A DNA stretch of 64,000 nucleotides from contig CM119373.1 of assembly GCA_051294905.1 (NCBI GenBank), positions 2,482,001-2,546,000 on the forward strand. The letters are read 5' to 3'. Below the pieces are notes generated by a model. That model was not told the origin of the DNA and searched no databases. It worked only from the letters and a program-made list of their open reading frames with translations. Both the position numbers and the translations under genes were made by a program. Source of the DNA: Botryllus schlosseri. Lineage: Eukaryota. Positions 1 to 54,934 of the stretch are shown piece after piece (within the stretch, counting starts at the first letter, position 1; every line of letters begins with the position of its first letter).

Positions 1-1902
1 GGATTAAGCAGTGCGTGCGACAGACGGTGATTCGAATATCAACAATAGTCGCGTTCGCAAACTAACACTTCAAAAAGATGTGAAATATTTGTAAAATCCT
101 ACGATCGCTCACAAGATACCACTTCCGGCAAATCGATCTATCACTCAATACACAACCGAAGTTGAATTGTAATTGAATGCGTAAATTTATCACCTCGACA
201 TCAAAATTCGAAAACAACAACTTGACGCTTTATGTTCTCACTCTAATTTCATGATAAGTGTAATAAGTGCCGAATAACAGATACATCACCGGCGAGACTT
301 GAATACCAACAAATTGTCACTTATTTCTATTCTAGCCGTAATCCTTTGTGAAGTTAACGCTTATTCAAAAAGGTGTGAAATAGTTTGCAAAACCCCGCGA
401 TCACTGACAAGATAATGTCTCGGACATACCCATCTTTCGCGACTTGGTGTCATAGCCATACCGATCGCTCACGCGGTGAAATTTTAGTAATCAGTTTGTC
501 ACAGAACTAGATTTCACTGGTAAGATTTAATAAATACCGACTATCAGAACCATCAGTGTGGGTAACTTGAATAGCAACAAATTGTCACTTATTTCCGACG
601 AGAAATTCACTAAACCGCAGTACATTGTGTGATTTTGAAAAACAGATGTTTGCGCTTGCGTTTTGATATGTGCGACCCACTAACTACATCCGTTTTGCGA
701 ACACGGCTTGTTGTGAGGATTACGCGCGCGCCCTATATTTCGAATGACCTGCGCGCTGAAGTGCGAAATAGTTTGCTAAATCTAGTAATCAGTCGCAAGG
801 TGTTACTTTAGTAATTAGTTTACCATAGAACCGGCGTAGCCGGTGATTCGAATACCGACAAATTTTCACTTATTTCTGACCCAACCCTAATCCTCTGTGA
901 AGTTGACGCTTATTCAAAAAGGTGTGAAATAATTGTAAAATCCTAATCCGAAACCGATTATTTTGACTTTGGCGTAGTGTGCATTGAAATAGGATTGACA
1001 AACATGACTAGCAACTTCCCCACAGTCCCGTTTCGATATTATACACACATTGATTTGAAACAAGTAATGTAACATTACAACTCTATTCCCGATCCAGCTT
1101 TCCGTTTGTCAAAGAGACATTTTAACATCTTACCATACTCAAAAGAATTATTCACAACATTAACAAGTGTTTAAAATCTAGTTTTCACTTACTTGGCTAT
1201 ATCAGTACAACTCGCAAACTTGAATTAATTCATCTGGTTGTATTCATAGGACCGATAATTTTTATCCAACTGTAAAGGTCGTTATACTATTCTGTAAGAC
1301 AGAGTATTTACTAATCGGTGCATATACGATTTGACTTGGTCATATTATATTTTGAGTATACGAGATTTGAGTGTCAGAACAATAACTGAGAATTAAATTA
1401 TCACAATTGAATCCATATACGACAGCGTGAATTAAATTATCACAATTGAATCCATATACGACAGCGTAAAAGATATTGGGATGTCAGCATCTCTTTACGG
1501 TTATAGTTACAACCACATTACCTAATTTACCCGACCAACTCGTCATGATCATTCCCGAAATCAACACAAACATGACTACTGACTTGAGTCAACCACAAAA
1601 CAGCATCAAGTTTTAAATCCACTTGTAGCTTACGGCTTATTTGAATGCGGGTTATGTTTTGTTGTAATTGAGTGTACGGAAATAGTATTACGTCTCGACA
1701 TCTCACCATCTTACCATACTCAAAGAGTCAACCACGAAAACATTGTCAAGTAAATCCGTTTGTAACTTACCCAACCAACTCAAACAGTATCAGTATGAAA
1801 AACAGCCAAACATACACGAATCCATACAATCACTAAAACCTAAAATCCATAACAAGCTTGGTTGTATTCATATCCCTACACATCTTTTTTTATTCAGCTT
1901 CA
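1..1902 (+). repeat. Left arm of long near-perfect inverted repeat (pairs with 7207-9108); runs off the window start
   Basis: Position x pairs with 9109-x; mirrored ORFs 629..811/8298..8480 and 1527..1709/7400..7582; one mismatch noticed (358 vs 8751). Confidence 0.97.
1390..1467 (+). repeat. Perfect 39-bp tandem duplication (mirrored at 7642-7719)
   Basis: gaattaaattatcacaattgaatccatatacgacagcgt x2. Confidence 0.95.
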
Positions 1903-4469
1903 AAAGTCGTTACTATTCTGTAAGATAGAGGAATTACTACGCGGTATATTCTGCAAGACAAACTAATTACTACTCGGTATATTTTGTAAGACAAAAGTAA
2001 TTACTTCTCAGTGTCGGCGACTTGAGATTAACATAATATGTTTGAGTATACGAGATTTGAAAGTCCGACCAACGTAGTTGAGAATTCATTTCTTACAATC
2101 GAACAACGGTGTTATATTCAAAGTTATCATGCTGTGAACATAAGATTGACACATTGATTTGACATATGAGATTTGTAATAGTTGATCATTACTTTATTAT
2201 TAAATTATTTGCGTTAATTAGACCCGGCGTTATGGTAAATGTTATGACAGCAACAAACTTTTCAGTACCAATGTTATTAACACATTAAGCTGTAAAACTA
2301 TGTATGTCTGAAATGTTCTTGATAGGAAAATTACTCCACCTTGGTAAAAATCACTCTGCGTATTGCGGATATCAGAAAATATTTCCAGTACCCAAGACTA
2401 AAGATGAAACGACAATTTCGTTTGCTGATTAACAACCGGTACAATACTTTATCATCATAATCCGCGGTGAGAATTGAAACACTTTCGCGCATTACCCGGT
2501 GTCAAGATATCACACTAGGTGAATTGACATACCGCCGCTTGAATAATACCTAATCCGTTCGCACCATTTCACATACTTTGATCATTACAAAAGTAAATTG
2601 TGATATGTTTGTTAGATGCATTCAATTCAACTAGAAGTGTCTGGTACACAACAATCGTAATATCGAAAAAGTACTTGCCACACTGTTATTTGCTAAACGT
2701 GTTTTGCATTGTTGTTCATTTGTAGTATTGATTGTTTTTGAACCCCCAAATCATAATTCCCGACATGAAACCAAGCCGCTGAAAGTCGTTACCATCACGA
2801 AGATACAATGTGCACGATGATTGTCAAATGTGTCCTACCTGGCCAACAGAAAACAATTTTCACTCACTCGAAATGAAACCAATGTGATGGTCTCCATTCG
2901 ATATTTTGTTTGTGTCAAATATACTTTGCAATGAACACATTTGCGTGGTTGAGCTTTGCCATCATCAAGCTGTCATTTGTATCGTTTAATTAACCGACAT
3001 TTAGCGATTGGTGAACATACCGAACGATACACAGTCACTTCGAAATACTCCGTTGATCGTAATTTCCATCATCATAATAATCGAAGTACAATTGCTTCGA
3101 ATCGCTAGAGTGGTTGAGCTTTACATCATCAGACTGCCATCTGTACATCAAGAATACATCCACCTTGTAACTGGGTCGTTTACCTAACCGAGTTGTATGC
3201 ACAGTTTGATATTTAGCGATTGCAGAACATACCATTTCGAAATACTGCGTTGATCTCAATTCCTTTGTCGTGATAATCGAAGTATATTTGTTTCGATTTC
3301 ATAAAAACCAACTTTTCTATGACATGATAAATTTTTGAAAAGTTATACTTAGAAGGTTGGTGCATATCGCGAAAAATAATATACCACCCATATTGATATT
3401 GCTACTCCATTGATCGGTATTTTCACGCGAGTCGATTTTCAAATGAGTAAAATTTATTACATGAGTTTCTCCGCTTAATGTAAATGAAAACTCAGTCGTC
3501 TTTTAACATCACAAAGACATTGATAAAAAGTAAGCAATCAAACACAACACTTTGTACGACACTAGTTATTGTTCCACACATCTCATTTCATACTAAGTGT
3601 TTACGAAAGATATTCATGATGCACGAAAATATTCGCTCATGCTACAAACCTGTAGAATGATTGGTGGTGCAAGGCCAGCACAATTGTGGTATCCATCCGA
3701 GTTTAGTTAACACAAATTTATTACAACAGAGCCACGTAAACTTTCGTGAAAGAAAAGCATACTCACTTTCAGAGGGTTATGTCAATGCCATAGCAGTAAA
3801 TCAAAAATATTCCTAACCCTTTGCACACCGGTGACAAATCATACAACAAACATTTTTTGTGAGTCGAATTGTTGTTCAGTGTCAAGTCTACCTGTTGAAA
3901 AGTGCATTAAAACAACACAGTCACAATTCAATTAAAACCACGAATCTATTTTCATTTCGTCACATACAGAAAAATAAATTTTCTTTCCCCAACACATACT
4001 TGTAACCAATCGCTTTCATTAAACACACAACTCCATAAAAGTATTTACTTTCTACAACATAGACATTCCGATGTAGTCAAGAAATATTAAAACGGACACG
4101 ACACGACTGAATGTAAGGGGATAGAAGTCTATCGCATCGATTTACATGTGGTCTTCGCTACGGCTTCAAAAAACGCATCATCTATTTTGCATTGGTCGAG
4201 ACCGAGCGAGCCAGTTACATGTATTCGCGGTAATGATTTTTCTTGTCATATGCGAATGATAGGTTTACTACTCCGACAAATCAAATCAACAAACAACAAC
4301 AATCTTCTGACGATCATAATAGCAATTTCATTTGCCACCCCTTCGTAATTGTACACGCACGAAAAGTATATTGTACAACTCGGCAACTACGTTTAACAAG
4401 ACCAATCACACTACCAGCGTTGAACGCAAGATACCTACCCAAGTCAAAAATATCATACGGGTTTGGACA

Positions 4470-4791
4470 ACTGACGTTTACCTGTGTAAAATTATCATTT
4501 TCACTTGGCGATCTATCCTTTCCTAGAGTAACAAACCCTTGTCGTTTACAAATCTATTTTTTTTTCCTACAACAAAAAACTATTTTCACTTGGAAAAATA
4601 CTTTTACCTAGAGTAACTAATCATTTTCTTTTAAAAATATATTTTCTCCCTGGGTAACAAACCCTTTTCGTTTGGAAAACTATCATTTACCTGAGTACCA
4701 ATACCGTTTTCACTTGGCAGTCCGTCGTTTACCTGGCTAAACATATCATTTTCACTTGGAAATCTATTTTTTCCCAGAGTAAGAAACCTTT
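4470..4791. repeat. Degenerate ~42-bp tandem repeat, about 8 copies
   Basis: cct(a/g)gagtaac-like motif near 4480, 4522, 4607, 4649, 4690, 4732, 4773; recurring ttttcacttgg. Confidence 0.8.
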
Positions 4792-4869
4792 TTCACATCC
4801 TTGCGTGCAGGGTGAGGGTGAGACAAGGGGAATCCCCCAAAACATACCGTTTCGTGGTCAACATATTTA

Positions 4870-5637
4870 TTATAAAGAGGCGTTACAAAATTTACAATCA
4901 CCACCCTCATAATTGCAATAACCATTTTCTTTGACAAACATATCATGATAACGTGAAGATCTTAAATATTTGGCATACTCTCTAACCAACATATCATTAA
5001 TAATTTCATCAGCAATCATAGGATAACCATTATTTTTTAAAAATTCAGCAGTTTTACGAGTACTATAATTATGGACACAAGGTACTTTATGAGAGTGTCT
5101 AACATGCTTGTGTACTCTACCACCAATTTTACGAGGCCGTTGAGCCCTAATACCTTGGATATAAATAACAACACGCAAATAATGCAAAAATGATGTAATC
5201 TTTTTACGCCTACCCCACCCTTTACCACAATTACGCCAAACAGTCGAGGAATTTTTACTCTCAAGACTGATATAATGGCCGTGATCAATCTCAATATCAT
5301 CATCATAACAACACTCACACCAATGATCATTGACTGGTACAATATGTTTTTTTACTCCATCCTCTTTTTCTTTGGTATAGATGACATGATAAGCGTGATT
5401 AGCCTTGATGACCTTTTTAATAGTGTCATAGTGCCGACAAGTCTCAAGGATGAGTCCTTGTATTTGGCTGTCTTGATCTTTATCCTCATTAACGTAACCC
5501 CAATCTAGTATAGGTAATTTGCCCTCGGCAGCTTTGGGTTTATTTGGTCCCTTTAAACATTTTTTAATATGGCGAGCAATACCAGATTTGTTGATCTCTT
5601 TAACGCAGTGAGGGCACGATACTTTTGTAATCTTCAT
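4870..5637 (-). CDS. 255-aa intronless protein: N-terminal C2HC zinc finger, candidate HUH endonuclease motifs, Cys-rich C-terminus
   Basis: ATG at 5637 (MKITKVSCPHC); C-x2-C-x11-H-x3-C; DHGHYIS; candidate catalytic Tyr in LHYLRVVIYIQ or EYAKYL; C-x6-C-x2-C; TATA upstream and AATAAA at the stop. Function inferred from motifs only. Confidence 0.7.
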   Translation of the reverse strand: MKITKVSCPHCVKEINKSGIARHIKKCLKGPNKPKAAEGKLPILDWGYVNEDKDQDSQIQGLILETCRHYDTIKKVIKANHAYHVIYTKEKEDGVKKHIVPVNDHWCECCYDDDIEIDHGHYISLESKNSSTVWRNCGKGWGRRKKITSFLHYLRVVIYIQGIRAQRPRKIGGRVHKHVRHSHKVPCVHNYSTRKTAEFLKNNGYPMIADEIINDMLVREYAKYLRSSRYHDMFVKENGYCNYEGGDCKFCNASL

Positions 5638-5689
5638 GATGTTCACCCTTTGACAATCTTTTTGGCAATGACAAATGATTGCAAATCAC

Positions 5690-5706
5690 CCTCCTTATAT
5701 ACTTTT
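5690..5706 (-). promoter_or_regulatory. TATA box of the 255-aa ORF, in the unique spacer of the inner palindrome
   Basis: Minus strand aaaaGTATATAAGGagg about 60 bp upstream of the ATG. Confidence 0.55.
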
Positions 5707-5773
5707 TGAGTTTTTTTTTTTATTAAAATAATTAACAAATTACGCATCCAATGAAACAATACAGGCAGAGAGG

Positions 5774-6523
5774 TCGTGCCCTCACTGCGTTAAAGAGATC
5801 AACAAATCTGGTATTGCTCGCCATATTAAAAAATGTTTAAAGGGACCAAATAAACCCAAAGCTGCCGAGGGCAAATTACCTATACTAGATTGGGGTTACG
5901 TTAATGAGGATAAAGATCAAGACAGCCAAATACAAGGACTCATCCTTGAGACTTGTCGGCACTATGACACTATTAAAAAGGTCATCAAGGCTAATCACGC
6001 TTATCATGTCATCTATACCAAAGAAAAAGAGGATGGAGTAAAAAAACATATTGTACCAGTCAATGATCATTGGTGTGAGTGTTGTTATGATGATGATATT
6101 GAGATTGATCACGGCCATTATATCAGTCTTGAGAGTAAAAATTCCTCGACTGTTTGGCGTAATTGTGGTAAAGGGTGGGGTAGGCGTAAAAAGATTACAT
6201 CATTTTTGCATTATTTGCGTGTTGTTATTTATATCCAAGGTATTAGGGCTCAACGGCCTCGTAAAATTGGTGGTAGAGTACACAAGCATGTTAGACACTC
6301 TCATAAAGTACCTTGTGTCCATAATTATAGTACTCGTAAAACTGCTGAATTTTTAAAAAATAATGGTTATCCTATGATTGCTGATGAAATTATTAATGAT
6401 ATGTTGGTTAGAGAGTATGCCAAATATTTAAGATCTTCACGTTATCATGATATGTTTGTCAAAGAAAATGGTTATTGCAATTATGAGGGTGGTGATTGTA
6501 AATTTTGTAACGCCTCTTTATAA
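5774..6523 (+). pseudogene. 5'-truncated inverted copy of the 255-aa ORF (starts at SCPHC, no ATG or TATA)
   Basis: Revcomp of 4870-5619; in-frame TAA at 5729-5731 with no in-frame ATG before the copy. Confidence 0.8.
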
Positions 6524-6568
6524 TAAATATGTTGACCACGAAACGGTATGTTTTGGGGGATTCCCCTT

Positions 6569-7210
6569 GTCTCACCCTCACCCTGCACGCAAGGATGTGA
6601 ACGCTTATTCAAAAGGGCGTCATATATTATTTTAAAATCCGACGACCACTCACCGGATAATGCTTCACATCCTTGCGTGCAGGGTGAGGGTGAGACGTCA
6701 CCTCATCAACGATCACTATACTTACAAGGCACCGGTTGAGCGATAGGGCGTGTTTTTGGGGATTCCCCCTTGTCTCACCCTCACCCTGCACGCAAGGATG
6801 TGAACGCTTATTCAAAAGGGCGTCATATATTATTTTAAAATCCGACGACCACTCACCGGATAATGCTTCACATCCTTGCGTGCAGGGTGAGGGTGAGACG
6901 TCACCTCATCAACGATCACTATACTTACAAGGCACCGGTTGAGCGATAGGGCGTGTTTTTGGGGATTCCCCCTTGTCTCACCCTCACCCTGCACGCAAGG
7001 ATGTGAAGCATTATCCGGTGAGTGGTCGTCGGATTTTAAAATAATATATGACGCCCTTTTGAATAAGCGTTCACATCCTTGCGTGCAGGGTGAGGGTGAG
7101 ACGTCACCTCATCAACGATCACTATACTTACAAGGCACCGGTTGAGCGATAGGGCGTGTTTTTGGGGATTCCCCCTTGTCTCACCCTCACCCTGCACGCA
7201 AGGATGTGAA
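6569..7210. repeat. 203-bp tandem array of hairpins (33-bp perfect stem, 62-bp loop, 75-bp linker); 3 full units plus one half stem; third loop inverted
   Basis: Stem gtctcaccctcaccctgcacgcaaggatgtgaa at 6569, 6772, 6975, 7178 and its revcomp at 6664, 6867, 7070; loop 7008-7069 is the revcomp of loops 6602-6663 and 6805-6866. Confidence 0.95.
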
Positions 7211-9108
7211 GCTGAATAAAAAAAGATGTGTAGGGATATGAATACAACCAAGCTTGTTATGGATTTTAGGTTTTAGTGATTGTATGGATTCGTGTATGTT
7301 TGGCTGTTTTTCATACTGATACTGTTTGAGTTGGTTGGGTAAGTTACAAACGGATTTACTTGACAATGTTTTCGTGGTTGACTCTTTGAGTATGGTAAGA
7401 TGGTGAGATGTCGAGACGTAATACTATTTCCGTACACTCAATTACAACAAAACATAACCCGCATTCAAATAAGCCGTAAGCTACAAGTGGATTTAAAACT
7501 TGATGCTGTTTTGTGGTTGACTCAAGTCAGTAGTCATGTTTGTGTTGATTTCGGGAATGATCATGACGAGTTGGTCGGGTAAATTAGGTAATGTGGTTGT
7601 AACTATAACCGTAAAGAGATGCTGACATCCCAATATCTTTTACGCTGTCGTATATGGATTCAATTGTGATAATTTAATTCACGCTGTCGTATATGGATTC
7701 AATTGTGATAATTTAATTCTCAGTTATTGTTCTGACACTCAAATCTCGTATACTCAAAATATAATATGACCAAGTCAAATCGTATATGCACCGATTAGTA
7801 AATACTCTGTCTTACAGAATAGTATAACGACCTTTACAGTTGGATAAAAATTATCGGTCCTATGAATACAACCAGATGAATTAATTCAAGTTTGCGAGTT
7901 GTACTGATATAGCCAAGTAAGTGAAAACTAGATTTTAAACACTTGTTAATGTTGTGAATAATTCTTTTGAGTATGGTAAGATGTTAAAATGTCTCTTTGA
8001 CAAACGGAAAGCTGGATCGGGAATAGAGTTGTAATGTTACATTACTTGTTTCAAATCAATGTGTGTATAATATCGAAACGGGACTGTGGGGAAGTTGCTA
8101 GTCATGTTTGTCAATCCTATTTCAATGCACACTACGCCAAAGTCAAAATAATCGGTTTCGGATTAGGATTTTACAATTATTTCACACCTTTTTGAATAAG
8201 CGTCAACTTCACAGAGGATTAGGGTTGGGTCAGAAATAAGTGAAAATTTGTCGGTATTCGAATCACCGGCTACGCCGGTTCTATGGTAAACTAATTACTA
8301 AAGTAACACCTTGCGACTGATTACTAGATTTAGCAAACTATTTCGCACTTCAGCGCGCAGGTCATTCGAAATATAGGGCGCGCGCGTAATCCTCACAACA
8401 AGCCGTGTTCGCAAAACGGATGTAGTTAGTGGGTCGCACATATCAAAACGCAAGCGCAAACATCTGTTTTTCAAAATCACACAATGTACTGCGGTTTAGT
8501 GAATTTCTCGTCGGAAATAAGTGACAATTTGTTGCTATTCAAGTTACCCACACTGATGGTTCTGATAGTCGGTATTTATTAAATCTTACCAGTGAAATCT
8601 AGTTCTGTGACAAACTGATTACTAAAATTTCACCGCGTGAGCGATCGGTATGGCTATGACACCAAGTCGCGAAAGATGGGTATGTCCGAGACATTATCTT
8701 GTCAGTGATCGCGGGGTTTTGCAAACTATTTCACACCTTTTTGAATAAGCATTAACTTCACAAAGGATTACGGCTAGAATAGAAATAAGTGACAATTTGT
8801 TGGTATTCAAGTCTCGCCGGTGATGTATCTGTTATTCGGCACTTATTACACTTATCATGAAATTAGAGTGAGAACATAAAGCGTCAAGTTGTTGTTTTCG
8901 AATTTTGATGTCGAGGTGATAAATTTACGCATTCAATTACAATTCAACTTCGGTTGTGTATTGAGTGATAGATCGATTTGCCGGAAGTGGTATCTTGTGA
9001 GCGATCGTAGGATTTTACAAATATTTCACATCTTTTTGAAGTGTTAGTTTGCGAACGCGACTATTGTTGATATTCGAATCACCGTCTGTCGCACGCACTG
9101 CTTAATCC
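7207..9108 (-). repeat. Right arm of long inverted repeat (reverse complement of 1-1902)
   Basis: tgaagctgaata at 7207 is the revcomp of 1891-1902; tgcttaatcc ending at 9108 is the revcomp of 1-10. Confidence 0.97.
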
Positions 9109-9167
9109 TCACAACAAGCCACGTTTCCGTTTGCGCGGTTATTGTTGGTGACTCGTACATATTCAAC

Positions 9168-9548
9168 ACCGCGCGAGAGATGCCTATACCGAAAAGGGTT
9201 ACCGTGTGAGAGGCTCCATAAGACACAACGGCACCGTGCGAGAGATGCCTATACTTGAAAGTACGACTCACCAACACGAGTTTTCGAGGCACCGTGTGAG
9301 AGATGCCTATACCGAAAAGGGTTACCGTGTGAGAGGTTCCATAAGACACAATGACACCATGCGAGAGATGCCTATACTCGAAAGTACGACTCACCAACAC
9401 GAGTTTTCGAGGCACCGTGTGAGAGATGCCTATACCGAAAAGGGTTACCGTGTGAGAGGCTCCATAAGACACAATGGCACCGTGCGAGAGATAGGGGGGG
9501 TCAAAAGGGTCACCGTGCCAACACGAGTTTCGAGGCACCGTGCGAGCG
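9168..9548. repeat. 123-bp GC-rich tandem repeat, about 3 copies, built of ~30-bp subunits ending ccgtg(t/c)gagag
   Basis: atgcctataccgaaaaggg at 9180, 9303, 9426. Confidence 0.92.
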
Positions 9549-18521: not shown

Positions 18522-19207
18522 CCTATACCCCAAACAATGCTGGACCAGTATATGACAAAGTCACTGAAATGCCACCTTCCAAGGCGAACGCACCATGTAT
18601 CGACGTTGGAAAACTAGTAAGGTTTACGTAGTACCAGGAATCATTGTCGCTGTGAATTTTGAATGGATCGGATCAGTCATTGCAATTTTATGTAATTCTA
18701 CTACAATAATTAATTCCTATCCCATGAAATCGAGTCTATACCCGAAATGTACTTGTACACTTGTACTAAACACAAGTATTAGTATGGTGATCATTTAGCT
18801 AGTGTTCGTGAATGCTGTACGCCACTACTATGCCGGATTTAGTCTGAAACCAGATGTGTTTTAAAACACTCTGTTCAGCACATGTTTAAAAAATCAATAC
18901 GCAATTGGTCGTATCGCTACATACGGAACATGCAATACAAGGCTACGCCCGTTTGTGGAAATGGCAACGTTGTTATAAATTACGAGATTTGCGGAATTGA
19001 TACTGTATACTTTGTGGTCGCGTTACAGGTACATATTTTGACTTTCCGCATCATTTATGCTGTTATGACGTTGTAATGAAATGATACTGGAATACTCCAA
19101 TTGACTCGAAGCCCTATACTCGATTCAGACTCATAATCACTCAAGCATACTCGATTTTGCTCAGTCTAATTATAATCCACTGGTAGCATGTATCGAATCA
19201 AAAATAC

Positions 19208-19785
19208 CTGGTGATATTGGTCTTCACGAAGGCTGGGTTGACTGAATTCACGCGAACGCCTTTCGGCGCGCACTCGCGAGCCACGCATTTGGTGAATTGA
19301 TCCACTGCCGCCTTGGTCATGCTGTACAGAAGCACGCCTTCAAACGCCTGCAGCCCGGCAATGCTCGAAACGTTCACAATATTTCCTTTCGACGCCACTA
19401 AATGCGGCATAGCCTTCTGAGTCAACACGAACAACGACTTCACATTAACCGTGAAAAGCATATCAAAATCTTCAATAGGTGAAGTTTGTAGACTGCCCAG
19501 TTTGTAAGCGCCCGCATTGTTGATGAGTATATCGAGCCGCTTATACTTTTCAACAATCTTATCCACCAAATTTTCAACCTCCTGTTGGTTTGTGAAATCC
19601 GCGAGTATTTGAAGGACATCTGCGGCACAGTTGTTCCGGCATTTTAATTCTGTTGCGTTCAATTCGTCCTTGTCTCTACCTGTAATGGCTAATATCGCGC
19701 CATGCTTTGCGAAATCTTGTGCTACTTCGCGACCGATACCGCTTGACGCGCCGGTTACTAACACAACCTTACCGGAGAAACTCAT
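19208..19785 (-). CDS. SDR gene A exon 1: classical short-chain dehydrogenase/reductase (FabG/glucose dehydrogenase-like)
   Basis: TGASSGIG, NNAG, NVSS, YSMTK, GVRVNSVNP; donor cag|gtattt; 578 + 190 nt = 256 codons including stop. Confidence 0.92.
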
Positions 19786-25565: not shown

Positions 25566-27269
25566 CTATTTCATAGTTAGTGTTCTTCCACGGTCAACCA
25601 CAAAATTAGTTCCGGTCATCCAAGCGGATTCATCGGATGCCAAAAAGAGAATGGCCTTCGCGATGTCTTCCGTTGCACTCAATCTTCCGAGCGGGTGGGC
25701 CTCAACAAAGCTTTCTCGAAATCTTTCCAATTCCTCTCCCACGAGTCCGGAATCCCTTAAGATATAGTACACGCTAACTACACATTGTGAGTGTTGTCAT
25801 CTAAAAATGCAGTCTTGTAACACAACTATACCATGCCATAGTGTACTTGACAATAGTATAAAATGAATCACCGCTAAAATTTATTGCATGCCTAGGAGAC
25901 GATGTTTGCCGTAGTTTCTTCTTGGCAAAGTCGTGTCATTTGTCACCGTAAACACTACTATTCCACAAAAATGATCATTCCACCAGATTTAGATCACTCC
26001 AAATTAAATGGTTGCACTCAAGAAAACTGGTGTGCTGCGTTTTGCAACCAAGCTAACAGTGCAATAGGAATAGTCCAATGAACAAAACAGTTCTCTGAGA
26101 AACTAAAGATAATCATACTTATTATAATTGTTCATTTTCGTTTCGATTCAAAGCTACGAAAAGCAGCATGTGAGCCATGCTTCCAAGTCGGCCGCACGGC
26201 ACTTAGACATAGACATGGCTGCAAAGAAATGGGAGGGACTGATGATGAAAAATTTTATCGTCCGTACCGCGTATGATAGAAAAGGGCTGGCTGTCGCAGT
26301 GCAAATAACCTGATGATGCGAAAAGCGCCGAAATAAGGCGTGTGCAACTGTACACCATGCAACTGCAGTGCATTAAATCGCCTAGCCTAAAAGTGCTTGG
26401 ACAGCCAGGTTAGGCTTACATTCAAAACAAAACAAAATTCAAAACGAACATGTTTAAAACGAGGCCCCTGTCTAAAACATGTTTTTTAAGCACTGACGTC
26501 ACGAATATTCAATTGGCACGTTATATTAGATTGACATTGACAATTGAAAATATAGGTTACATATATTTCTTTTACGAAATATCTGTATTATTGTGGTTTA
26601 ACCGACTATTTTGAGGGAACAGACATCCCATATCGATATAATTCGTTTATATCGGGTGGAAATTGCCCGTAGTCTAATACAACATGTTTTCTGGAAAGTA
26701 TTTACAGAATTATGGCATACTTTTACAACTTGAAAAAAAAACACATTTTTTCAGAAAGGCCTTTTTTAAAAAACACTGTTTGAAACATGTCTTAAACAAA
26801 GTGTTTTAAAATACCGTTTGTTCTAAATGAAACCCTAAGCCAGGCTAATTGATAGTCTGAACTAAAATGCCATGAATGACGCAAAATCTGAAATGCGGAT
26901 GTATGTGTGGGTCTTCCGGGGGTAGGGCTGGGAAATGAACTATTTCTAGTCAACAGCATAGCAGTATTGCGATATAGTGGGTTATACTGGAGTATTGGAG
27001 TATCGGCATTGTTGACGAGTATATCCAGATGGTTATACTTCTCTACAACTTTATCCACCACACTTTCGACCTCCTGTCTCCTTTTGAAATCCGCGCGTAT
27101 TTGTAGTAGAACATCATTAGCTCCGTTAACACGACATTCCGCTTCTGCGGAGTTTAATTCGTCTTTATCTGTAATAGCCAACGCCGCGCTTCGCGAAATT
27201 TTTTGCTGTCTCGCGACCGATGCCACTGGCCGCGACGGTTACTAACACAACCTTGCCTGTAAAACTCAT
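25566..27269 (-). pseudogene. Divergent SDR pseudogene B: exon 1 remnant ~27000-27269, exon 2 25566-25755
   Basis: MSFTGKVVLVTVAASGIG then frameshift; homology ends after ILVNNAD (YxxxK region and donor lost); exon 2 AHPLGRL...AILFLASDESAWMTG with acceptor ttaag|G. Confidence 0.85.
26411..26837. mobile_element. MITE, tagggttgcatttaaaac family
   Basis: TSD agccaggt/agccaggc; homologous to 18082-18521. Confidence 0.8.
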
Positions 27270-32717: not shown

Positions 32718-34556
32718 CTTTAACGTAAGGTGAATCGCAATTAATGGTCTACAAGGTCGTGAGTTTGTGTGTACATAGATCTGTTTCGACAGAAGGTAGT
32801 ATTTGAATTGGGGAACTGACACCGAAACACCGGTTCAATCATGAAACTGTGATCAGTGGCTCCCAACCTTTTTCGGTGTGAGGGCCAAATTTAAAATTTT
32901 AGAGTACGGTCGGGCCCGCACGAATACTAGGGCAATGAAACGGACCCAAATAGTCATCAAAATATGAAAATTGGAACTGTTCCGATCAATCGCTCGACGC
33001 CATTAGCGATTGTTTGGTCATTGTGTTGCCGTGCTCCCATTGTTCAGAACAATCAACTTTTGATGGCAATTTGGAGTAATTTTATCGCCCAGGCGAGATT
33101 TCAAACTGTACACTGTTTACCGCTACTTGTCTGCTGCATTGGGTGTCTATTGAGTGAATCAGCTTTTCTCGCGTCAACGCGAGAAGCGCGAGAAATTTCT
33201 TTACTTCATGACTGAATCGATCAATACGATCGGGAATTGCATATATTGCTCTCAATTTTCATCCTGTCACTGTTCACGTAATATGATTTACCAGTTGAGC
33301 TGAGTGAGGTGTGTTTGAAAAGGTATAGGCCCCCTCAATAATAATTAAACATCTCCGGGGGTATACCCGTTGGCAGGAATGTAACAGCACTTCGTCAGCC
33401 CCCGGGCTCTAATAGGGTGATAAACTGACCCCGCATCACGTTTTTCGCTTTTGCCACGAAATTAAAGTTGTATTGTTTAGTGAGCCAACGCGATGCGCGA
33501 AGATTTCGATAATTCATGATAAAATCGGTGAATAAGATCGGGAATTGCATGGTTGTCCTCTCTGCTCACGTAATCAGATTTACCGGTACACTGTAAAAAA
33601 TCTGGTAGATTTACTGGGAAATCTCTGTAAATTTTGCAACGAATTACCGGTAGCTGCCAATAACTGTGCCTAGCTTGTAATTTTACATTTTGATATGTAA
33701 TATTACCTCAATTTAGCTCTAAAGTCAAGTTACCAGAATTTCTTCGCAAAATTACTGACAGTTACTCGTTACTGAAGTTTACCAGGCTATTGGCAAAATT
33801 GATTAGCTTGAAAATCTCTGCAGCCAATGTATACGTGGAACTCAATGCTACTGATATCATTCTCGTGGTGATTTGACGTGATTCAACCTCGTTCGCGAGT
33901 CTGGGGTCTATCATACGGAAATTGCTGTTGGTCCTAGTACCAATTTCAGTATAGTACATAGTAGGGTAAAAGAAACAACTCACAATCGTAGATACCCACT
34001 ATATTATATTATAAGGCTATGGCTATACGGCCGATCTCGCTGGTTACATTCATTGTCACGGATAGGAGTGATGAGTTAGAATATCAGTTTAGGATGTATA
34101 ATATTGTTCGGGAAACTAGAAACATCAGCAACGCATGCCAAGTTGACCATTTGTTAATGGCGAACAAGGCGACCTGTAATAGGTTACATTAGGTTACCGT
34201 TACGCGTTACGAAAAACAACCAACGCACAACTATGACATCACAAGCAGCGTCTGGTTAAGTAAGTACGGTAAGTAGTGACAACACATGGAATAAATATCA
34301 ATTTATACGCAATTAAATAGAAAAGAAAGGGGCTAGATGTAATGATACCTGTTTCTGTATGAAAAAACTACCTAAATCAAACATTATAACGCAGTGGCCA
34401 CTAAATATTATTGGTGGCTTGTCAGCGGATGAATACCACTTATTTCGAAATCGTGAGAGTGTCGTATCGTCGTCTACTCAAATCTCAATTCTCAATAATG
34501 GCCAAAGGGCGGAGCGAAGCTTGTTGTGCTTGAAGAAAGTGGACACGATCGTTGAA

Positions 34557-35786
34557 CAGTGGTGCCACTCCTAGTGTTTTAACACTAGATCTAGTGTTTT
34601 TTCGGTCGTCCTAGTGTTCTAGTGTTTTTTTTCGCCAAATTTTGCTCATCTAGTGTTTTTCTGCAATTATGCGAATGATGAATATTCTAACGTTAGACGA
34701 CTTAATTATACGCTAAATTTATCGCTAATGAGGCGATTTGGAGCCTCTAGCTGTGTTTGTTTTCAACAATTCTATGTGGTGGTGCAGTAACACGCAATTA
34801 TTACGTAACAGGGTGCTCTGTGAATCCGTACTTATGAGCGAAAGTCTCTGAAAAAATGTAGAGCGATTTCGCTCTGATGCTCTGTCGTTTCTTGTTGAAC
34901 TCAGTGTGCAGATTCGGGCAAGACATACATTTGCCGAGACAGACAGACAAACATACAGTTTTACTGAAAAAAATTGCAATAAAAATATAATTCATGCTGC
35001 AGCTATACGATCCTTCAGGATTCCCGCGGATCCTCCCGCCAGCTGCATTGATGGAGTGCTAATTAAGCATTGTTCAATTCGAGTCTCGCGTCATCAATAA
35101 TAATAAATATTTAAAAATGTAAGCAGGTCCAAGAATAGTAAGAAGAAGAATAGTAAAATCAATCATTCCTCTAGCTATCCAATTTCCCTCTGTCATATTA
35201 TATGGTGAACTTGAACTTTGGCAAGATCGCAAAATGAGCTGCAGTTTATCAGTCAAAGCCCTCCAACAGAATTTTTGCAAAAATTGAAATCTGTGTACAA
35301 TGGATTCGGAGAATCAAAATTCCATTTACTGGGGAAGCTCATGACAAATCTCTTGGCATTACCACATTCCACTGCATTTGCGGAATTGAAGTATGGTGCA
35401 TATGGAAACCTCCCCATTGTTTGGTTGAAGATGTGCGGTAGTCAGCAAGATGCCCCACAAAAGATACTTATGTTTGATAGATGGTGTACAATCGAAAGAT
35501 AATTTTTATGATGCCGCACAATTCGAAAGCAACAAATTTGATTTTTTTTGCGCTGTTGAATTCGTTTCATTAATTTTCGTTGAATAATCATGCAGTATAT
35601 CATTCATATGTATCGAATTCATGTGCGGAACACTTCTTATCTGTAGATATGTACCTTGGTCATCATGATTCCTTGGCAAGGGCAAATTTTTCCTGCAGTT
35701 TACTAATCTAGTGTTTTTTTCGCCAATCTAGTGTTTTTTCACGACATAATCTTGTGTTTTTTCGGGAACCTAGAGTGGCAACGCTG
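34557..35786 (+). mobile_element. hAT deletion derivative with transposase C-terminal remnant
   Basis: cagtggtgccactc ... gagtggcaacgctg; perfect TSD tcgttgaa (single in copy 2); ORF 35218 contains KLMTNLLALPHSTAFAE, resembling the hAT dimerisation domain. Confidence 0.85.
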
Positions 35787-36130
35787 TCGTTGAAGATTCC
35801 TAGGAATGCTGATTGGGATACGCATCGTAAAAGGTACAGTACTACATAGTATTCGTTACCGTGAATATCTACGACTGTGCACACCACCGGGATGACTTTG
35901 ATTTCATAATTGAAATATTTCATTAGCCGCATTCTCTGTTCTATTTTGTGATGTTAGTCGACTTATATACTGACCTGTGACGCCACATACTCTGCCGCGG
36001 AGTAGTTGAAACTGTTGGCATGTTAATGTCATTTTGGGGCTCTAGCATAGAGATGTTTCCATTCACTGCAGGATTTGTTTGGCACACATGCCACCTCAAA
36101 TGAGGAACCTTTTGCTTCAATACATTAGAT

Positions 36131-37139
36131 CAGTGGTTCTCAACCTGGGGAACGCGAGAAATTGACTAAGTCTGTATGAATTCTGACTAAACATGTGTTT
36201 CGCAACCATTTTCAGAAGACGATTGTTGAAGATGAAACTTATTTCGTATTCAAGAAACCTCGCCAAATTCGAACTCCAGCAGTCGCGCTCAACTTCATTT
36301 AAGCGAATTTTTGATATTCTTTGAAGATTTAGAGGAATTACCACATGTAAGTCATTCATTACTTCATAGCTTGGCAGTAGCCTAAAGCTCGTTCCGCTGG
36401 GTAGCTGTTGTTAATAGCTGGCGAACTGCACTGCGTAAAACAGACTTAGATGCAATATAGGTTGCTTGGTTTCACCCTCAATTAAGCTACCCTATATCAA
36501 CACAATTCAATTCAATTCCAAAACTGATCTAATTGAGCATGGCAGTACATAGAACGACGCCTTGTTCACTGTAGTCACCACCAGCATTAGGATTAGTCTC
36601 AGTGCAACCTATCTTGAAACAAATTGATCTCCTGTCCAATGTTTTTTTGCTATTTTCAAACAAGTTTGGGGAAATTTGTCGAAAATGTTAAAGACTGGAA
36701 TACGGATTCAAACGTGGCGTAAGACATACCATATGTATACTATTACATCAGGGATGGGCAACCTGCTGTCGTAGATGGGAATTTGTGTGGCCGTCAACAC
36801 CTAATTCAATTAGTATGTGTTAGCATCCGTCGACATGCAAATTGAAATTACTAATTCACTCCCAATTTTTTTAGAGATTCTAATTATTTTTGAAATTTTC
36901 TTCGCGCTCCACGCAATTCAACATAACTAATATAGTAGCGCCCTTCTAAATCTGAGCAGGAATCAGAATCGTGTGCTCCTCACAAAAGAAATTTTTTTAT
37001 GGTGCATTTGGGCGATTTCAATATATTTCCACTACCGATACGATGGACGGGGGTCAAGAAATAACAGCATGCAATAAAGTGCATGACTAATAATAATTGG
37101 CCCACACGAAGATGCATTATCATTTATAACTGCCCGCTG
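36131..37139. mobile_element. Composite hAT-type insertion
   Basis: TSD cattagat/catttgat; empty site in copy 2 near 39315. Confidence 0.65.
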
Positions 37140-38581
37140 CATTTGATAAAGTAAGTCATGAATCTCTGCTATATCATGTAAAAGGCGGAGCCGTCACCAC
37201 AATATGTACCAGTACCGGTGCTTCAAAAATTGTTATATTTTTGTTACCCTATTTGTCTTAGTAGTCTTTATAATGTCATATCTAGGTTAGGGAGTTTGCT
37301 TAATATAGCGACTTGAATTCTTTTTAGTGGAACTGCAAGATACTAGCTACACAGAAGGAATGAGGTCGAGAAAAAGAAACAATTGGAAGTTTGGCCAATT
37401 GTTGGAGACCACTCGTGTTACTGCATGTCTCCCAAAGAAGAAGTATACCTCCTGCAGCAATACTTCCATCGATAATCTTCTCATCGTGAATCATGAATGA
37501 ATATACAGTTTGTTCCAATGTCGTTTTGGGGTGTGAAGAAGCTTTTGCGATATTTTAGCATAGGGTTGCTTAGCGATAGGTATGGGATGTACGTGAATTT
37601 ACAAGCTGGTATGTAATCCTGATTTACACAGACAGCATGTATATAGGTAGGCGGTAAAATTACAGTCTGAGTGGCAAATATACAGGGTAAAATGTAGATT
37701 GGATATACCAGAGGCGACTGTAACATTACAGTCTGGCGTGTAAAGTGAGATTACCGGACGAGTGTAAGTTAAATTTACATTGACTAACGGTAATGTTACA
37801 TTACCACGAAATGTCTGGCTACCGTGCTTCCAAACATTTCGCGGTAAATCGAGGTTTTTTTTTTTACAGTGTAGAGCTGAGTGAGAGGTGTCTTTAAAAC
37901 TGTAGATCCCGTAAAATTGAACATCTTCGGGCGGGCGGACCCCTTGGTATGACTTTTTCACATGATGTTATTTCGTGACCTCCTGTCTGCTATATCAAAA
38001 AATGTAGAATTGCCCAAACCTACTAAACTGAAAGATCACACGATTTCAGATTGGTATTTCTTGACTGGCATATAATATTTTTTCCTGCGGGATGGTATAT
38101 TTGTCTTGTGAGGTTCAGATTGCCAAGACAGGAACATTCGGCGCCAGTCATTTAGGGGCCTATATGGACAATTAAAGCTATATGTATTTTGTACATATAA
38201 CGAAGTTTTTGGTCTGCATAAAAGCAGTTCTTTACGGCCAAGGTTTTCTCGCTGCCGATCGTTCTGGCACACTTCTTGGAGTCGCATGTTACAGGGCCTA
38301 AAAATTTATATGTCTTGGTGAGTTGTGGTGCGGTAATGGCCAACGTCGATATGCCTATTTCTATAAATCTTGCCTAATTTTTTCAAGGGGAAGAGTACCC
38401 AATCATCAAGATATGTGGCGCATTTAAATCGCGCATAGCGCGAAAATTTTTTGGAAAAGTTGCATAAATTTTCAAAAAATACTCTATAATTATGCTAATT
38501 CACGAAATAATTTTGGGCCCCTTTCGAGCTCGACCCGCCTCAATTGGTGGGTTTGGGGTGTGGCAGTTACGGCCATGGCTA

Positions 38582-40649
38582 CACTGTAAAAAATAAAAAC
38601 CTCGATTCACCGCGAAATGTTTGGAAGCACGGTAGCCAGACATTTCGTGGTAATATAAGATTACCGTTAGTCAACGTAAATTTAACTTACATTCGTCTGG
38701 TAATCTGACTTTACACACCAGACTGTAATGTTACAGTCTCCCGCGGTATATCCAATCTACATGTTCTCCTGTACACTTACCACCGAGACTGTAATTTGAC
38801 CGCCTACCTACCTATATGCTGCCCGTGTAAATCTGGACTACATACCAGCTTGTAAATTCGCGTACATCCATACCTATTGCAAAGCAACGCGATGCTAAAA
38901 TATCGTAAAAGTTTCTTCGCACTCCCAAAACGACATTGGTACAAACTGTATATTCATTCATGATTAATGGTTATCGATGGAAAAGTATTGCTGCTGGAGA
39001 TCAAATTCTTCTTTAGGAGACATGCAGTAACACGAGTGGTCTCAAGAGAAGGTGAATTAATTCCACCACCGGCCAAACTTCCAGTTGTTTCTTTTTCTCG
39101 TCCTCATTCCTTCTGTGTAACATGCAGTTCCACTGAAAAGAATTCATGCATAAGTCGCTATATTAAGCAAAGTTGCTAACCTAGACATGACATTAAAAAG
39201 ACTAAGACAAACGGGCTAACAAAAATATAACATGTTTCGAAGTACCGGTACTGGTACATTGTGTGATGACGGCTCCGCATTTTACATGGTATAGCAGAGA
39301 TTCAAGACATACTTTATCTAATGTATTGAAGCAAAAGGTTCCTCATTTGAGGTAGCGTGTGTGCCAAACAAATCCAGCAGTGAATGAAAACATCTCTATG
39401 GTATGGCCCGAAAATGACAGTAAGAAACCAACAGTTTCAACTCCTCCGCGGCGGAGTATGTGGTGGCACAGGTCACTATATAAGTCGACTAATATCCCAA
39501 AATAGAACAGAAAATGCGGCAAATGAAATATTTCAATCATGAAATCAAAGTCATCCCGATGGTGTGCACAGTCGTAGATATTCACGGTAACAAATGCTAT
39601 GTAGTACTGTACCTTTTACGATGCGTACCCCATTCAGCATTCCTAGCAATCTTCAACGATCGTGTCCACTTTCTTCAAGCACAACAAGCTTCGCTTCACC
39701 CTTTGCTCAAATCTCAATAACGGCCACTGGCCAAACGACACTCAGGCGATTTCGAAATAAGTGATATATTCATCCGCTCACATATGCCACCAAATATATT
39801 TACTGGCCACGTTATAATGTTTGATCTAGGTCGTGTTTTCCATACAGAAACATTTATTATTACATATAGTCCCTTTCTTTTTCATATAATCTCGTATAAA
39901 TTGATATTTATTCCAAGTGTTGTTCACTACTTACTGTACTTACGTAACCAGACGCTGCTTGTGATGTCACAGTTGTGCGTTGGTTGTTTACAACGAATCT
40001 CAGAAACCCAGTGACGCGTAACGGTAACCTAATGTAGCCCATTACTGGTCGCCTTGTCCGCCATTAACAAATGATCAACTGAGCATGCGGTGCTGATATT
40101 TCTAGTTTCGCAAACAATATTATACATCCTAAACTGATTTTCTAACTTATCAGTTCTATCCGTGACGACGAATGTAACCGGCGAGACCGGCCGTATAGCC
40201 ATAGCCTTATAATATAATATAATGGCCATGGTGTAAAACCACATTAGCTACGACTGCCAGTTGTTTCTTGTACCCTACTATATACTATACTGAAATTGGT
40301 ACTAGGGCCACCAATTTCCGTATGACAGACCCCAGTTTCACGAACGAGGTTGAATCAGGACAAATCACCACGAGAATGATATATCAGTAACATTCAGTTC
40401 CCCATATACATTGGCTGCAGCGATTTTGAAGCTAATCAATTTTGCCAATAACCTGGTAAACTGCAGTAACGAGTAACTGTCAGTAATTTTGCGAAGAAAT
40501 TCTGGTAACTTGACTTCACAGCTAAATTAAGGTAATATTACATATCAAAATGTAAAATTACAAGCTACGTTCAGTTATTGGCTGCGACCGGTAATTTGTT
40601 GTAAAATTTACAGAGATTTCCCAGTAAATCTACCAGATTTTTTACAGTG
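38582..40649 (-). mobile_element. Non-autonomous CACTG-ended element, copy 2 (2068 bp, uninterrupted)
   Basis: TA|cactgtaaaaaa ... ttttttacagtg|TA. Confidence 0.88.
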
Positions 40650-42225
40650 TATAGGACTACCAATTATGCTGCTTTTAGCCGGCTAAGCAGTACGCATCTC
40701 GGCGTATTCAACCGTGAGTCACGTGTTGCACATCTAGTTATCATAGGGTTACCATACGTCCTCTTTTAAGAGGATTTGTCCTCTTTTTTGATTTTTTTAA
40801 AGTGTCCTCGGAGGACGCCGAAATGGCCTCTTTTTTGAGATTTCGTCTTCTTTTTTGAGAATTTTGGTTGAATATAGGGCCAAATTCGACTGATATACAT
40901 TAAGTCAGCACTGTAGGAAAGGTACGGCAGCTATCTCGGGAGCTGGGATGGAAAGTTGACCTTTTTTCAGTCAACCACCTGTTACTGTGAAAGAAAAACT
41001 GTCTTTTCCCGGAGTTGAGCCTATTTTTCTTATTTAGTCAAGCGACCACGGAGTGGGAAAAATTAACCATTTTTTCTGGATCTTCCTCCGGTTTTGAAAG
41101 TTATCAATACCTATGTATATCTATAGCTACTGCTCGTTCAACTGGAAAGTTAGGGCACATTGCATTAAAACAGCAGTGACGTAACGTTAGCAGTCTACTC
41201 ACAACTTTACTGCAATTCTATACTTAAAAACTACAGAGGCCAAGCCAAGCAAGAGTATTTTATAAATATAAGTTTTATTTTTTTGTCATAATTCGATTTC
41301 TTACTATATTTTGGGGCCGCGGTTGGGAATCACTAGTATAGATACTGATGTGTTCGAACTGTAAGTTGTCGGGGGTAGGGAAATTTCCTTCCCTAGCTCA
41401 GTAGAAGCCGCGGGCCGCAGCATTAGGCTCACAGTAGTCTTGTTCAATATCCAGCAACGAAGGTCGTATTTGGCGCTATTGAACTGTCAGATTGAAAGTG
41501 AGCCGACCTTGGGCGTAACAGGGTCTGCGTATAAGCTGCATTATGTGCTGTTTCAATTGTACTACTCGTGCAGCGGGGTAAAATTGCTGTTGAAATTATC
41601 TGTGGCGCGAATCCGAGCGTATAACACAAATAATAAAAATACGGGGTCAAGCTACATTTCGTTAAATAATTATAACAATCAGCATTTGGGCACATAGTAA
41701 CGGACTGTTTCGCTGTGTTGCAAAATTTAGTAGTGGGCCACAAGTTGTTAACCCCTGGTACCCAAAGTCTCTGCAGTTCCTCGTTCAATGCGAACGAATC
41801 ACGTATCGACGTTGGAAAGGTAGTCTGGTTTACGTAGTTGCAGTATACCAGGAACCATTGTCGTTGAGAAATTCGACTGGATCGGATCTGCCATTACAAT
41901 TGTTTTGTATTTGTCTGGTGACTCATTTCGTTAGTGTTGTTGAACACTGTACTTCATTAGTACGCCGGGTTTAGTTTAAAACCAGATGTCTGTTAAAACA
42001 CTCTGTTGAACACACGTTTTAACAAATCACCTCTAAGAGGTTTATTTCAATACGCGATAGGTCGTATAGCAACATACGAAACATGCAGTGCGAAGCTACG
42101 CGCGTTTGTGGAAATGACATGTCAGTGAAATCGTGATTAACACACAGCATTGTTACAATATACGAGCTTTGCGGTGGGGTGAAAATGGCACTAGTCGCAC
42201 GAAAAGTATGTATTTGAACTTCCTA

Positions 42226-43849: not shown

Positions 43850-44014
43850 TTCTACATCAGTCATGCTGTTGTGACGTTGTAATGAGTGATACAATAGAAA
43901 ACTCATGTTGAATCGATGCCCGATACTCTATTGAGATTTAGAATCACTCAGGCACACTCGATGTTGCCCAACCCTTATTATAATCCACTGGTAGCAGTAT
44001 CCCATCATAAATAC

Positions 44015-44592
44015 CTGGTGATATTGGTCTTCACGAATGCTGGGTTGACTGAATTCACACGGACGCCTTTCGGCGCGCACTCACGAGCCACGCATTTGGT
44101 GAATTGATCCACTGCCGCCTTGGTCATGCTGTACAGCAGCAATCCTTCTAACGCTTGTAGCCCGGCAATGCTCGAAACGTTCACAACATTCCCTTTGGAC
44201 GCTACCAAATGCGGCATAGCTTTCTGAGTCAACACGAACAGCGACTTCACATTAACCGAGAAAAGCATATCAAAATCTTCAACGGTCGAAGTTTGTAGAT
44301 CGCCCAGTTTGCAAGCTCCTGCATTGTTGATGAGTATATCGAGCCGTTTATACTTTTCAACAACCTTATCGACCACACTTTCAACCTCCTGTTGGTTTGT
44401 GAAATCCGCGAGTATTTGAAGGACATCTGCGGCACAGTTGTTACGACATTTCAATTCTGTTGAGTTCAATTGGTCCTTGTCTCTACCTGTAATAGCTAAT
44501 ATCGCGCCATGCTTCGCGAAATCTTTTGCTACTTCACGACCGATACCGCTTGACGCGCCAGTCACCAACACAACCTTGCCGGAGAAACTTAT
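44015..44592 (-). pseudogene. SDR pseudogene C exon 1 (open frame but ATG mutated to ATA)
   Basis: Very similar to SDR-A/D exon 1; ATA at 44590-44592 with in-frame TAA just upstream; donor cag|gtattt intact. Confidence 0.8.
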
Positions 44593-54177: not shown

Positions 54178-54341
54178 TTATACATCAGTGACGCTGTTAT
54201 GACGTTGTAATGAGTGATACTAGAATACTCAATTTGAATCCAAGTCCGATACTCTATTCAGATTTAGAATCACTCAGGCATACTCGATGTTGCCTAACCC
54301 TTATTATAATTCACTGGTAGCATGTATCCAATCATAAATAC

Positions 54342-54919
54342 CTGCTGATGTTGGTCTTCACGAGAGCTGGGTTGAGTGAATTCACACGGACGCCTTTCGG
54401 TGCGCACTCACGAGCCACGCATTTGGTGAATTGATCCACTGCCGCCTTCGTCATACTGTACAGCAGCAACCTGTCGAACGCTTGCAGCCCGGCGATGCTC
54501 GAAACGTTCACAACATTCCCTTTCGACGCCACCAAATGCGGCATAGCTTTCTGAGTCAACACGAACAGCGACTTCACATTAACCGAGAAAAGCATATCAA
54601 AATCTTCAACGGTCGAAGTTTGTAGATCGCCCAGTTTGCAAGCTCCTGCATTGTTGATGAGTATATCGAGCCGTTTATACTTTTCAACAACCTTATCCAC
54701 CACCCTTTCAACCTCTTCTTGGCTTGTGAAATCCGCGAGTATTTGCAGGACATCTGCGGCACCGTTGTTACGACATTTCAATTCTGTTGAGTTCAATTCG
54801 TTCTTGTTTCTACCCGTAATAGCTAATATCGCGCCATGCATCGCGAAATCTTGCGCTACTTCACGACCGATACCGCTTGACGCGCCAGTCACTAACACAA
54901 CCTTTCCGGAGAAACTCAT
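54342..54919 (-). CDS. SDR gene D exon 1: classical short-chain dehydrogenase/reductase
   Basis: ATG 54919; TGASSGIG, NNAG, YSMTK; donor cag|gtattt; 578 nt as in the paralogs. Confidence 0.9.
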
Positions 54920-54934
54920 GTCACCATATAAATG

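Follow-up and report, generated by a model that had tools for sequence, protein, structure and literature searches.

Results

Organisation of the locus

The window, that is, the whole stretch of 64,000 nucleotides analysed here (Botryllus schlosseri, assembly GCA_051294905.1, contig CM119373.1, positions 2,482,001 to 2,546,000), contains an array in which a 62-bp loop recurs between 33-bp stems. Loops 6602-6663 and 6805-6866 are identical and loop 7008-7069 is their exact reverse complement (62/62), as had been claimed in a reading of the sequence alone. Sequence comparison also confirmed the constant orientation of stems and linkers stated there: the four right-pointing stems are identical, as are the four left-pointing ones, the two sets are mutually reverse-complementary, and the three 75-bp linkers are identical and point the same way. 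A 20-mer stem pattern matched exactly at eight positions in the window and at none in 100 shuffles, and no further copies were found in the window when up to three mismatches were allowed. Simple slippage, already ruled out in that reading as the cause of the flop, was likewise rejected by us as the source of the loop inversion.

Self-comparison of the window revealed that the flip-flop array forms the right-hand end of something larger, whose blocks run in the order A', B, E, loop, M, loop, M, inverted loop, M (to 7210) and A. The sequence-only reading had overlooked two stems, at 7178-7210 (the fourth) and 4792-4824, as well as the 828-bp arms with their gene and the mirror 1-1902/7207-9108. 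One locus was seen in full, with eight ends and four distinct junctions but no simple insertion accompanied by its empty site, and its features are the following:

1-1902, minus strand: A', host DNA, mirror of 7207-9108; leaves the window at the left edge
1899-1902, plus strand: empty target site TTCA; left flank as at the filled junction 7207-7210, then host DNA
1903-4791, plus strand: B, host DNA between both target sites; ends in a 41-bp repeat array
4792-6601, no strand: E, 1,810-bp palindromic coding element; arms 4792-5619 and 5774-6601, 154-bp centre
4870-5637, minus strand: ORF P0001, 255 aa, predicted Y1 HUH nuclease
5620-5773, minus strand: unpaired centre, with the first six codons and the likely promoter
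5774-6523, plus strand: mirror gene copy from codon 7; upstream in-frame ATG absent
6602-6663, plus strand: loop 1 (flip), 62 bp of host repeat; host TGAA and TTCA at its edges
6664-6804, plus strand: mini-element M1, 141 bp; 33-bp inverted ends and 75-bp interior
6805-6866, plus strand: loop 2 (flip), same as loop 1
6867-7007, plus strand: mini-element M2
7008-7069, minus strand: loop 3 (flop), reverse complement of loop 1
7070-7210, plus strand: mini-element M3; its terminal TGAA (7207-7210) is common to host DNA
7207-9108, plus strand: A, inverted duplicate of host 1-1902; three diverged loop-repeat paralogues inside

The arms of E are complementary at 828 of 828 positions, and A differs from the reverse complement of A' by one mismatch in 1902. 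The mini-elements are arranged head-to-tail, not head-to-head, and the last 28 bp of their interior are 82% like the inner end of E. The inner border of A/A' carries element ends, and the outer end lies outside the window and is unmarked by an element end. Within the 33-bp end at 4792-4824, a tandem GGGTGA hexamer located 18-29 bp from the terminus is a candidate binding site for the enzyme.

The remaining window is repeat-rich and gene-poor and contains copies of a short-chain dehydrogenase gene, all on the minus strand and with uninterrupted long frames (19198-19785, 44005-44571, 54332-54946 and 26792-27226); the three long copies are 86-93% alike. Older inverted repeats (84-92%) are nested at 33587-34556/39652-40651, 35787-36130/39316-39659 and 37140-37874/38579-39323, and the whole of 33587-40651 is possibly a decayed fold-back element. 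Another inverted pair, 11398-12327/23063-24024, is 81% alike.

The loop is host DNA between transposon ends

The loop had been described as a mismatched palindrome, a description that folding did not confirm. Its folds are close to those of shuffles (z -0.14 for flip, -0.81 for flop). Among 3000 shuffles, 187 aligned to their own reverse complement at least as well as the loop does, and so did 126 of 1752 ordinary 62-mers taken from the window. Segment 6569-6696, to which the same reading had pointed, does fold strongly as single-stranded DNA (-48.1 kcal/mol, z -12.5), a strength that is due to the stems and not to the loop.

Contigs of four of the 24 listed sequencing runs (X2, X5, X6 and X7) were compared with the window over 5620-6771; flip and flop read alike in such contigs, a stem-bounded flop contig being the reverse complement of a flip one. 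In the window itself, the loop is 75-82% like the three paralogues in A/A' (8166-8202, 8692-8750 and 8991-9040), the best match reaching an E value of 5e-6 and 40.1 bits, as compared with 34.6 bits at best among 200 shuffles. Past the TTCA at 6664-6667, the repeat reads GACATAG, and not the element, in three of the four runs (X2, X6, X7), and letters of the repeat type lead into GTGAA (6597) in two of them (X6, X7); the 13 loose letters that precede GTGAA in X7 are exactly those of window positions 340-352. Since the contigs continue as repeat on both loop edges, the host repeat already reads TGAA-62 bp-TTCA. Summed depth in X2 was 27,000-75,000 over the loop and about 1,000-2,000 over the gene, and in X6 it was 800-4,250 and about 4-13, respectively, values that are to be taken as hints and not as copy numbers. 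These data suggest that the loop belongs to a high-copy host repeat. Run X5 bears the label of another organism; one of its contigs, 966 letters long, tracks the gene as far as 6601, and its DNA beyond that point is unrelated. This different flank after the same end, together with the host-repeat continuity, means that the loop is not part of the element. The loop is host DNA between transposon ends, and what had been called stems are those ends. The loop as a hairpin tip was therefore rejected, its palindrome being not significant and its sequence that of a host repeat. Stem, loop and stem occur together in an X2 contig covering 6585-6680, with 17 stem letters per side and nine differences.

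Downstream of the array, 9167-9546 consists of a 123-bp tandem repeat with a motif similar to the mini-element interior (9471-9501, 77% over 31 bp, E 0.16), and in X5 and X6 pieces resembling the linker continue into the G-rich tail of this repeat. The interior of the mini-elements may therefore be captured repeat DNA.

The palindromic element across sequencing runs

Two X7 records cross the edges of the centre: record 19 passes from it into the left-arm frame, and record 20 spans the right centre junction with 61 and 33 letters. In X2, the depth of the centre is approximately half that of the gene. The palindromic build is the normal form of this element family. At position 5991, both arms carry C in the window and A is found in all four runs, so the arms were equalised after this change arose; the right arm of X7 differs at 5776, beside the centre, which indicates that the equalisation is not absolute. 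In X6, the stems and linker reach a depth of 377-1,671 and the gene about 4-13, which hints at more mini-elements than coding copies. The family looks young and is about 99% identical across several individuals and labelled organisms. Relative to the host repeat, the gene in X2 has about ten times the depth that it has in X6, which might weakly hint at individual differences in copy number or at extrachromosomal copies. An X6 contig also joins 5873 to 5620.

The element encodes a predicted HUH nuclease

The coding sequence of P0001 is made up of the left arm and six codons of the centre. A TATA-like TATATAA lies upstream of it on the minus strand (5695-5701), and the centre of E is likely its promoter on these sequence grounds. 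The letters at 5747 and 5753 differ in X7 and in most X2 contigs, where they create a word resembling a CCAAT box, upstream of the TATA-like one; the promoter of the window copy may therefore be atypical. The gene copy in the right arm lacks the start codon and is likely silent, and its rescue by splicing was considered and rejected.

The N terminus of P0001 (aa 8-27) resembles the UBZ finger of Rad18 (UBZ4/Rad18-like, E 0.014), and a Pfam match to the Sgf11 finger (E 1e-4) was below cutoff. Among 1.84 billion representative proteins three scored, of which two are real homologues, namely P0002 (E 7e-39) and P0003 (E 2e-7), both unnamed singletons on contigs of 1.0 and 1.8 kb; the third, P0004, matched through the zinc finger only and was excluded from the alignment. 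P0001-P0003 share 25-34% identity, and over these three sequences YHVI (83-86), CEC (107-109), H119/H121, H152, YIQ (159-161) and H176/H178/H181 are invariant. The model built from the three sequences has a pLDDT of 62.6 and a pTM of 0.58, with 91-116 and 164-188 under 50, and the single-sequence fold of P0001 has a pLDDT of 33.7. In the model, YHVI lies on a strand, HxH on strand 118-124 and Tyr159 on helix 150-162, which is the order of Rep motifs. The spacing from HxH to Tyr is 40, 40 and 41 residues, as compared with 42-44 in the SIRV1 Rep; the frame used for this spacing and for the profiles comes from a record without a name, which we take to be ORF119. Some features are less typical: the middle residue of the HUH motif is G, G and I, hence atypical in two of the three proteins, Tyr159 stands in a YIQ context without the usual xxK of motif III, and the motif I position is occupied by the invariant YHVI strand and not by a strict UUTU. 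The order of motifs I-III is that given in an excerpt on Rep proteins (PMC6668415).

The 50 fold matches listed include two Rep nucleases, 2x3g (SIRV1 ORF119; rank 3, Z 3.3, rmsd 3.6, 77 aligned) and 6h8o (Master-Rep of a nanovirus; rank 28, Z 2.6, rmsd 4.1, 66 aligned), which are the only listed matches confined to the core 64-190; the Z-scores are within noise and the top two rows are unrelated proteins. Foldseek gave no match at E <= 0.001, a further PDB look-up returned one unrelated row, the Pfam, PHROGs and PDB-sequence searches yielded no HUH link, and no Y1_Tnp match appeared in Pfam up to E 5. Profile-profile probabilities were 0.2 for the E. coli RAYT and 0.6 for the presumed SIRV1 Rep, with a three-sequence profile of little power, and a profile of the core placed the SIRV1 frame 11th of 55. 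Taken together, the motifs and the weak fold matches lead us to predict that P0001 is probably an HUH enzyme.

Relatives were sparse in the collections that were searched. A word-index search confirmed none of 48 candidates with P0001 and, with the alignment as query, only P0003 of 828; a weak search for longer forms gave 0 of 3149. Pattern matches in viral, metagenome and prokaryote contigs (82, 170 and 22, respectively) included no confirmed relative, and none was found in phage records. The stem pattern had no match in metagenomes and two in viral contigs, of 18-19 letters only and judged to be chance. Atlas look-ups, at best 0.88, led to unnamed clusters and to no usable named match.

These data bear on the possibility that the locus represents the integrated termini of a hairpin-ended, parvovirus- or poxvirus-like virus with flip/flop loops of its own. 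The flip/flop pattern, the palindromic genome and the predicted Rep-like protein would fit such an origin, as would the best HUH fold match, a rudivirus Rep. However, the loop is a host repeat without a significant palindrome, X5 shows another flank after the same end, viral contigs and phages hold no relative, and no helicase or capsid frame was found at the element, where one 255-aa frame and its mirror are the only ones. The viral explanation is thus largely refuted, and hardly any likelihood is left to it.

Junctions at TTCA

Read inwards, all eight ends are TTCA-CATCC, and they face four distinct flanks. For the A flank, the window contains the empty site (1899-1902), which reads TTCA. 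Since this site is crossed by an old duplication within host DNA (1227-1411 vs 1844-2103), A'-B is the pre-insertion state. At both loop edges, the run contigs show that TTCA is supplied by the host. In the 41-bp host repeat of the B flank, four of the seven earlier units read TTTTCA at the junction position, which makes a host TTCA probable there as well. Host TTCA is thus used at three of the four distinct junctions, and probably at the fourth. TTCA occurs at 0.7% of positions per strand, which gives a probability of about 3e-7 for three independent sites. The flanks of E and M1-M3 in this rearranged locus carry no short direct target duplication, and the two flanks of any element are never adjacent in the host. 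TGAA is followed by TTCA 40-80 bp downstream in 107 of 377 cases; such pairs are common.

The junctions also allow us to weigh the proposal that a DDE transposase or tyrosine recombinase acting in trans moves the elements, P0001 being a passenger or itself recombinase-like. Perfect inverted ends are typical of DDE elements, and the ends here are of this kind; moreover, P0001 and P0002 contain an HxLR-like stretch at 152-155. In contrast, no element has a short target duplication, and a DDE complex, which cuts at a fixed stagger of 2-10 bp, is incompatible with host TTCA at non-adjacent sites. The Arg of HxxR is a Gln in P0003, and the sole invariant downstream Tyr is Y230. We consider this proposal improbable.

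An artefact of library preparation or assembly (fold-back chimera, polymerase switching at hairpins) appears less probable still as the source of the flop, of the array or of the mirror. Such artefacts arise readily at hairpins and near-perfect palindromes, and A' and A differ at only one of 1902 sites, but every breakpoint falls on the same four letters. In addition, the palindromic build of E recurs in the independent run X7 and a stem-loop-stem contig exists in X2, observations which bear on E and on the loop, respectively, and not on the flop.

Discussion

Our analysis describes a palindromic coding element and three mini-elements with the same ends, joined to host DNA at TTCA. With even confidence, we propose that P0001, as a predicted helicase-less Y1 HUH enzyme, joins each element end alone at any TTCA, which would also have produced the flop. 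The single-stranded element would fold back into a long hairpin, and the enzyme would nick at or next to TTCA and link the TTCA 3' end of host or loop to the element 5' end, one strand per step. The reverse polarity, with joining at TGAA, is equally compatible with the sequence, which cannot tell the two apart. One rule (TTCA 3' end to element 5' end, the strands acting separately) would cover all eight junctions. The host TGAA-62 bp-TTCA presents two targets on opposite strands, so that one insertion would give loop-element-loop, that is, a 62(+8)-bp target duplication in which the site is regenerated and the array can grow. A partner swap at both TTCA of one loop would lead to its inversion, the flop. 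The composite E-L-M-L-M-L'-M might then have been joined to the same-strand TTCA sites (1899, 4792) on sister copies, producing the A'/A mirror, which is probably local; no frame of at least 200 codons was found in the matching interval at 20-38 kb of the window. Copying through the hairpin would keep the arms identical.

For the flop, the host machinery might instead be responsible, through recombination or replication template switching between the 33-bp stems around loop 3, with the same elements and the same host loop. It is known that short inverted repeats can invert their spacer, stem-loop-stem folds strongly as single-stranded DNA (z -12.5 to -14), and a crossover anywhere within the identical stems yields exactly the sequence observed. 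Against this, stems of 33 bp are short for homologous recombination in animals. Moreover, the TTCA joint is needed anyway for all other junctions, so that an enzymatic flop requires no further assumption. Because the stems are identical and hold no marker, the crossover is assignable neither to TTCA nor to another part of the stem. On the sequence alone, host recombination within the stems would account for the flop just as well; overall, we give a host-driven flop a lower but real probability. Of the two mechanisms that the sequence-only reading had offered, inversion by recombination between the stems is therefore still live, whereas hairpin transfer as at parvovirus or poxvirus termini is not supported if taken literally; the latter idea is kept only for its chemistry, as an HUH nick-and-join enzyme is the predicted product of the adjoining gene.

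Going beyond the enzymatic joining at TTCA, and with somewhat less than even confidence, we suggest that the locus represents a third eukaryotic HUH group, to be added to Helitrons and Replitrons, and in animals the first without a helicase. Its fold-back and mini-elements would move as single-stranded hairpins whose ends join independently at TTCA, generating long target duplications, BIME-like arrays, flip-flops and inverted segmental duplications, and it might be the animal counterpart of the RAYT/REPIN system, with a rudivirus-like chemistry. The transposon family is apparently undescribed: no matching element was found in the literature searched, which did not extend to Repbase and subscription journals. 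If true, a 255-aa enzyme, a four-letter target and 33-bp ends would constitute a third eukaryotic HUH design, a very compact nick-and-join system open to direct in vitro testing. It would also show in concrete terms how an enzyme could give rise, in animal genomes, to inverted segmental duplications and to palindromes with homogenised arms. Since the family looks young, with about 99% identity across individuals, activity could be caught by comparing insertion sites.

Among known systems, several are set apart by their protein or their ends. The catalytic set of tyrosine recombinases is R...HxxR...H...Y; here, HxxR is present in two of the three proteins, with a Gln in P0003, and the Tyr about ten residues past the last His is absent in P0002. 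With DDE elements and MITEs, the present elements share terminal inverted repeats (33 bp in M, 828 bp in E), but short target duplications are absent. At parvovirus and poxvirus termini, the loop is part of the terminus itself, the Rep is fused to a helicase and capsid genes are present, none of which was found here. Maize Ac/Ds elements use DDE chemistry and have 8-bp target duplications. In an excerpt on these elements, neighbouring ends act together and termini are left at the borders of segmental duplications (PMC4270019); the likeness lies in these termini at duplication borders, whereas the joints are here fixed at TTCA.

The text consulted (PMC10288648) describes only two groups of HUH transposons in eukaryotes. 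Helitrons (HLE1/HLE2) bring HUH enzymes into animals as a large RepHel fusion that inserts at A/T or T/T without target duplication, HLE2 having short inverted ends, according to an extract of PMC11417382. In contrast, P0001 has 255 aa and no helicase, the target is TTCA, and the ends are a symmetric TTCA-CATCC, unlike those of Helitrons (TC...CTRR at A/T, asymmetric at T/T). Replitrons resemble our element in being eukaryotic and helicase-less, with a Y1 Rep and non-autonomous partners, and Replitron-1 makes target duplications of variable length (Craig 2023, PMC10288648, in the portion consulted). That portion describes short direct terminal repeats and HUQ, in plants, algae and protists (PMC10288648); here, there are long inverted arms, HxH and a UBZ-like finger, and the distinction from Replitrons is one of structural description only, within that portion.

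The HUH nick-and-join class drives flip-flop in rudiviruses, as excerpted from PMC4187194. The SIRV1 Rep ORF119 (PDB 2X3G; PMC4187194, PMC6668415, both in extract) is, as predicted for P0001, a small stand-alone Rep, with flip-flop of hairpin ends and a similar spacing from HxH to Tyr. However, SIRV1 is an archaeal virus of 32 kb, and its Rep resembles P0001 only weakly in fold (Z 3.3) and does not match it in sequence.

The closest parallels are found in bacterial systems, again as presented in extracts. IS200/IS605 peel-and-paste insertion sequences rely on a helicase-less Y1 HUH enzyme and a short defined target, without short target duplication (PMC10288648, PMC3333891), a likeness to TTCA used here without short duplication. 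IS608-type elements are strand-specific with dissimilar ends in these extracts, whereas the ends here are identical on opposite strands, so that both strands would be active. RAYT (TnpA-REP) is a small stand-alone Y1 HUH enzyme encoded near arrays of inverted-repeat doublets, the REPINs or BIMEs, which fold as hairpins and for which nick-and-join models build tandem copies (PMC3333891, PMC3337134, in part). The likeness consists of a small predicted Y1 enzyme and tandem hairpin doublets separated by linkers. The REP stems are small hairpins themselves, with a GTAG guide as described in those parts, and RAYT has no detectable sequence likeness to P0001 (profile probability 0.2). The present system differs in that its host is an animal, its spacer consists of captured host DNA, and a giant palindrome with the same ends encloses the gene. 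By this comparison, the element would work most like RAYT with its REPINs/BIMEs and like IS200/IS605.
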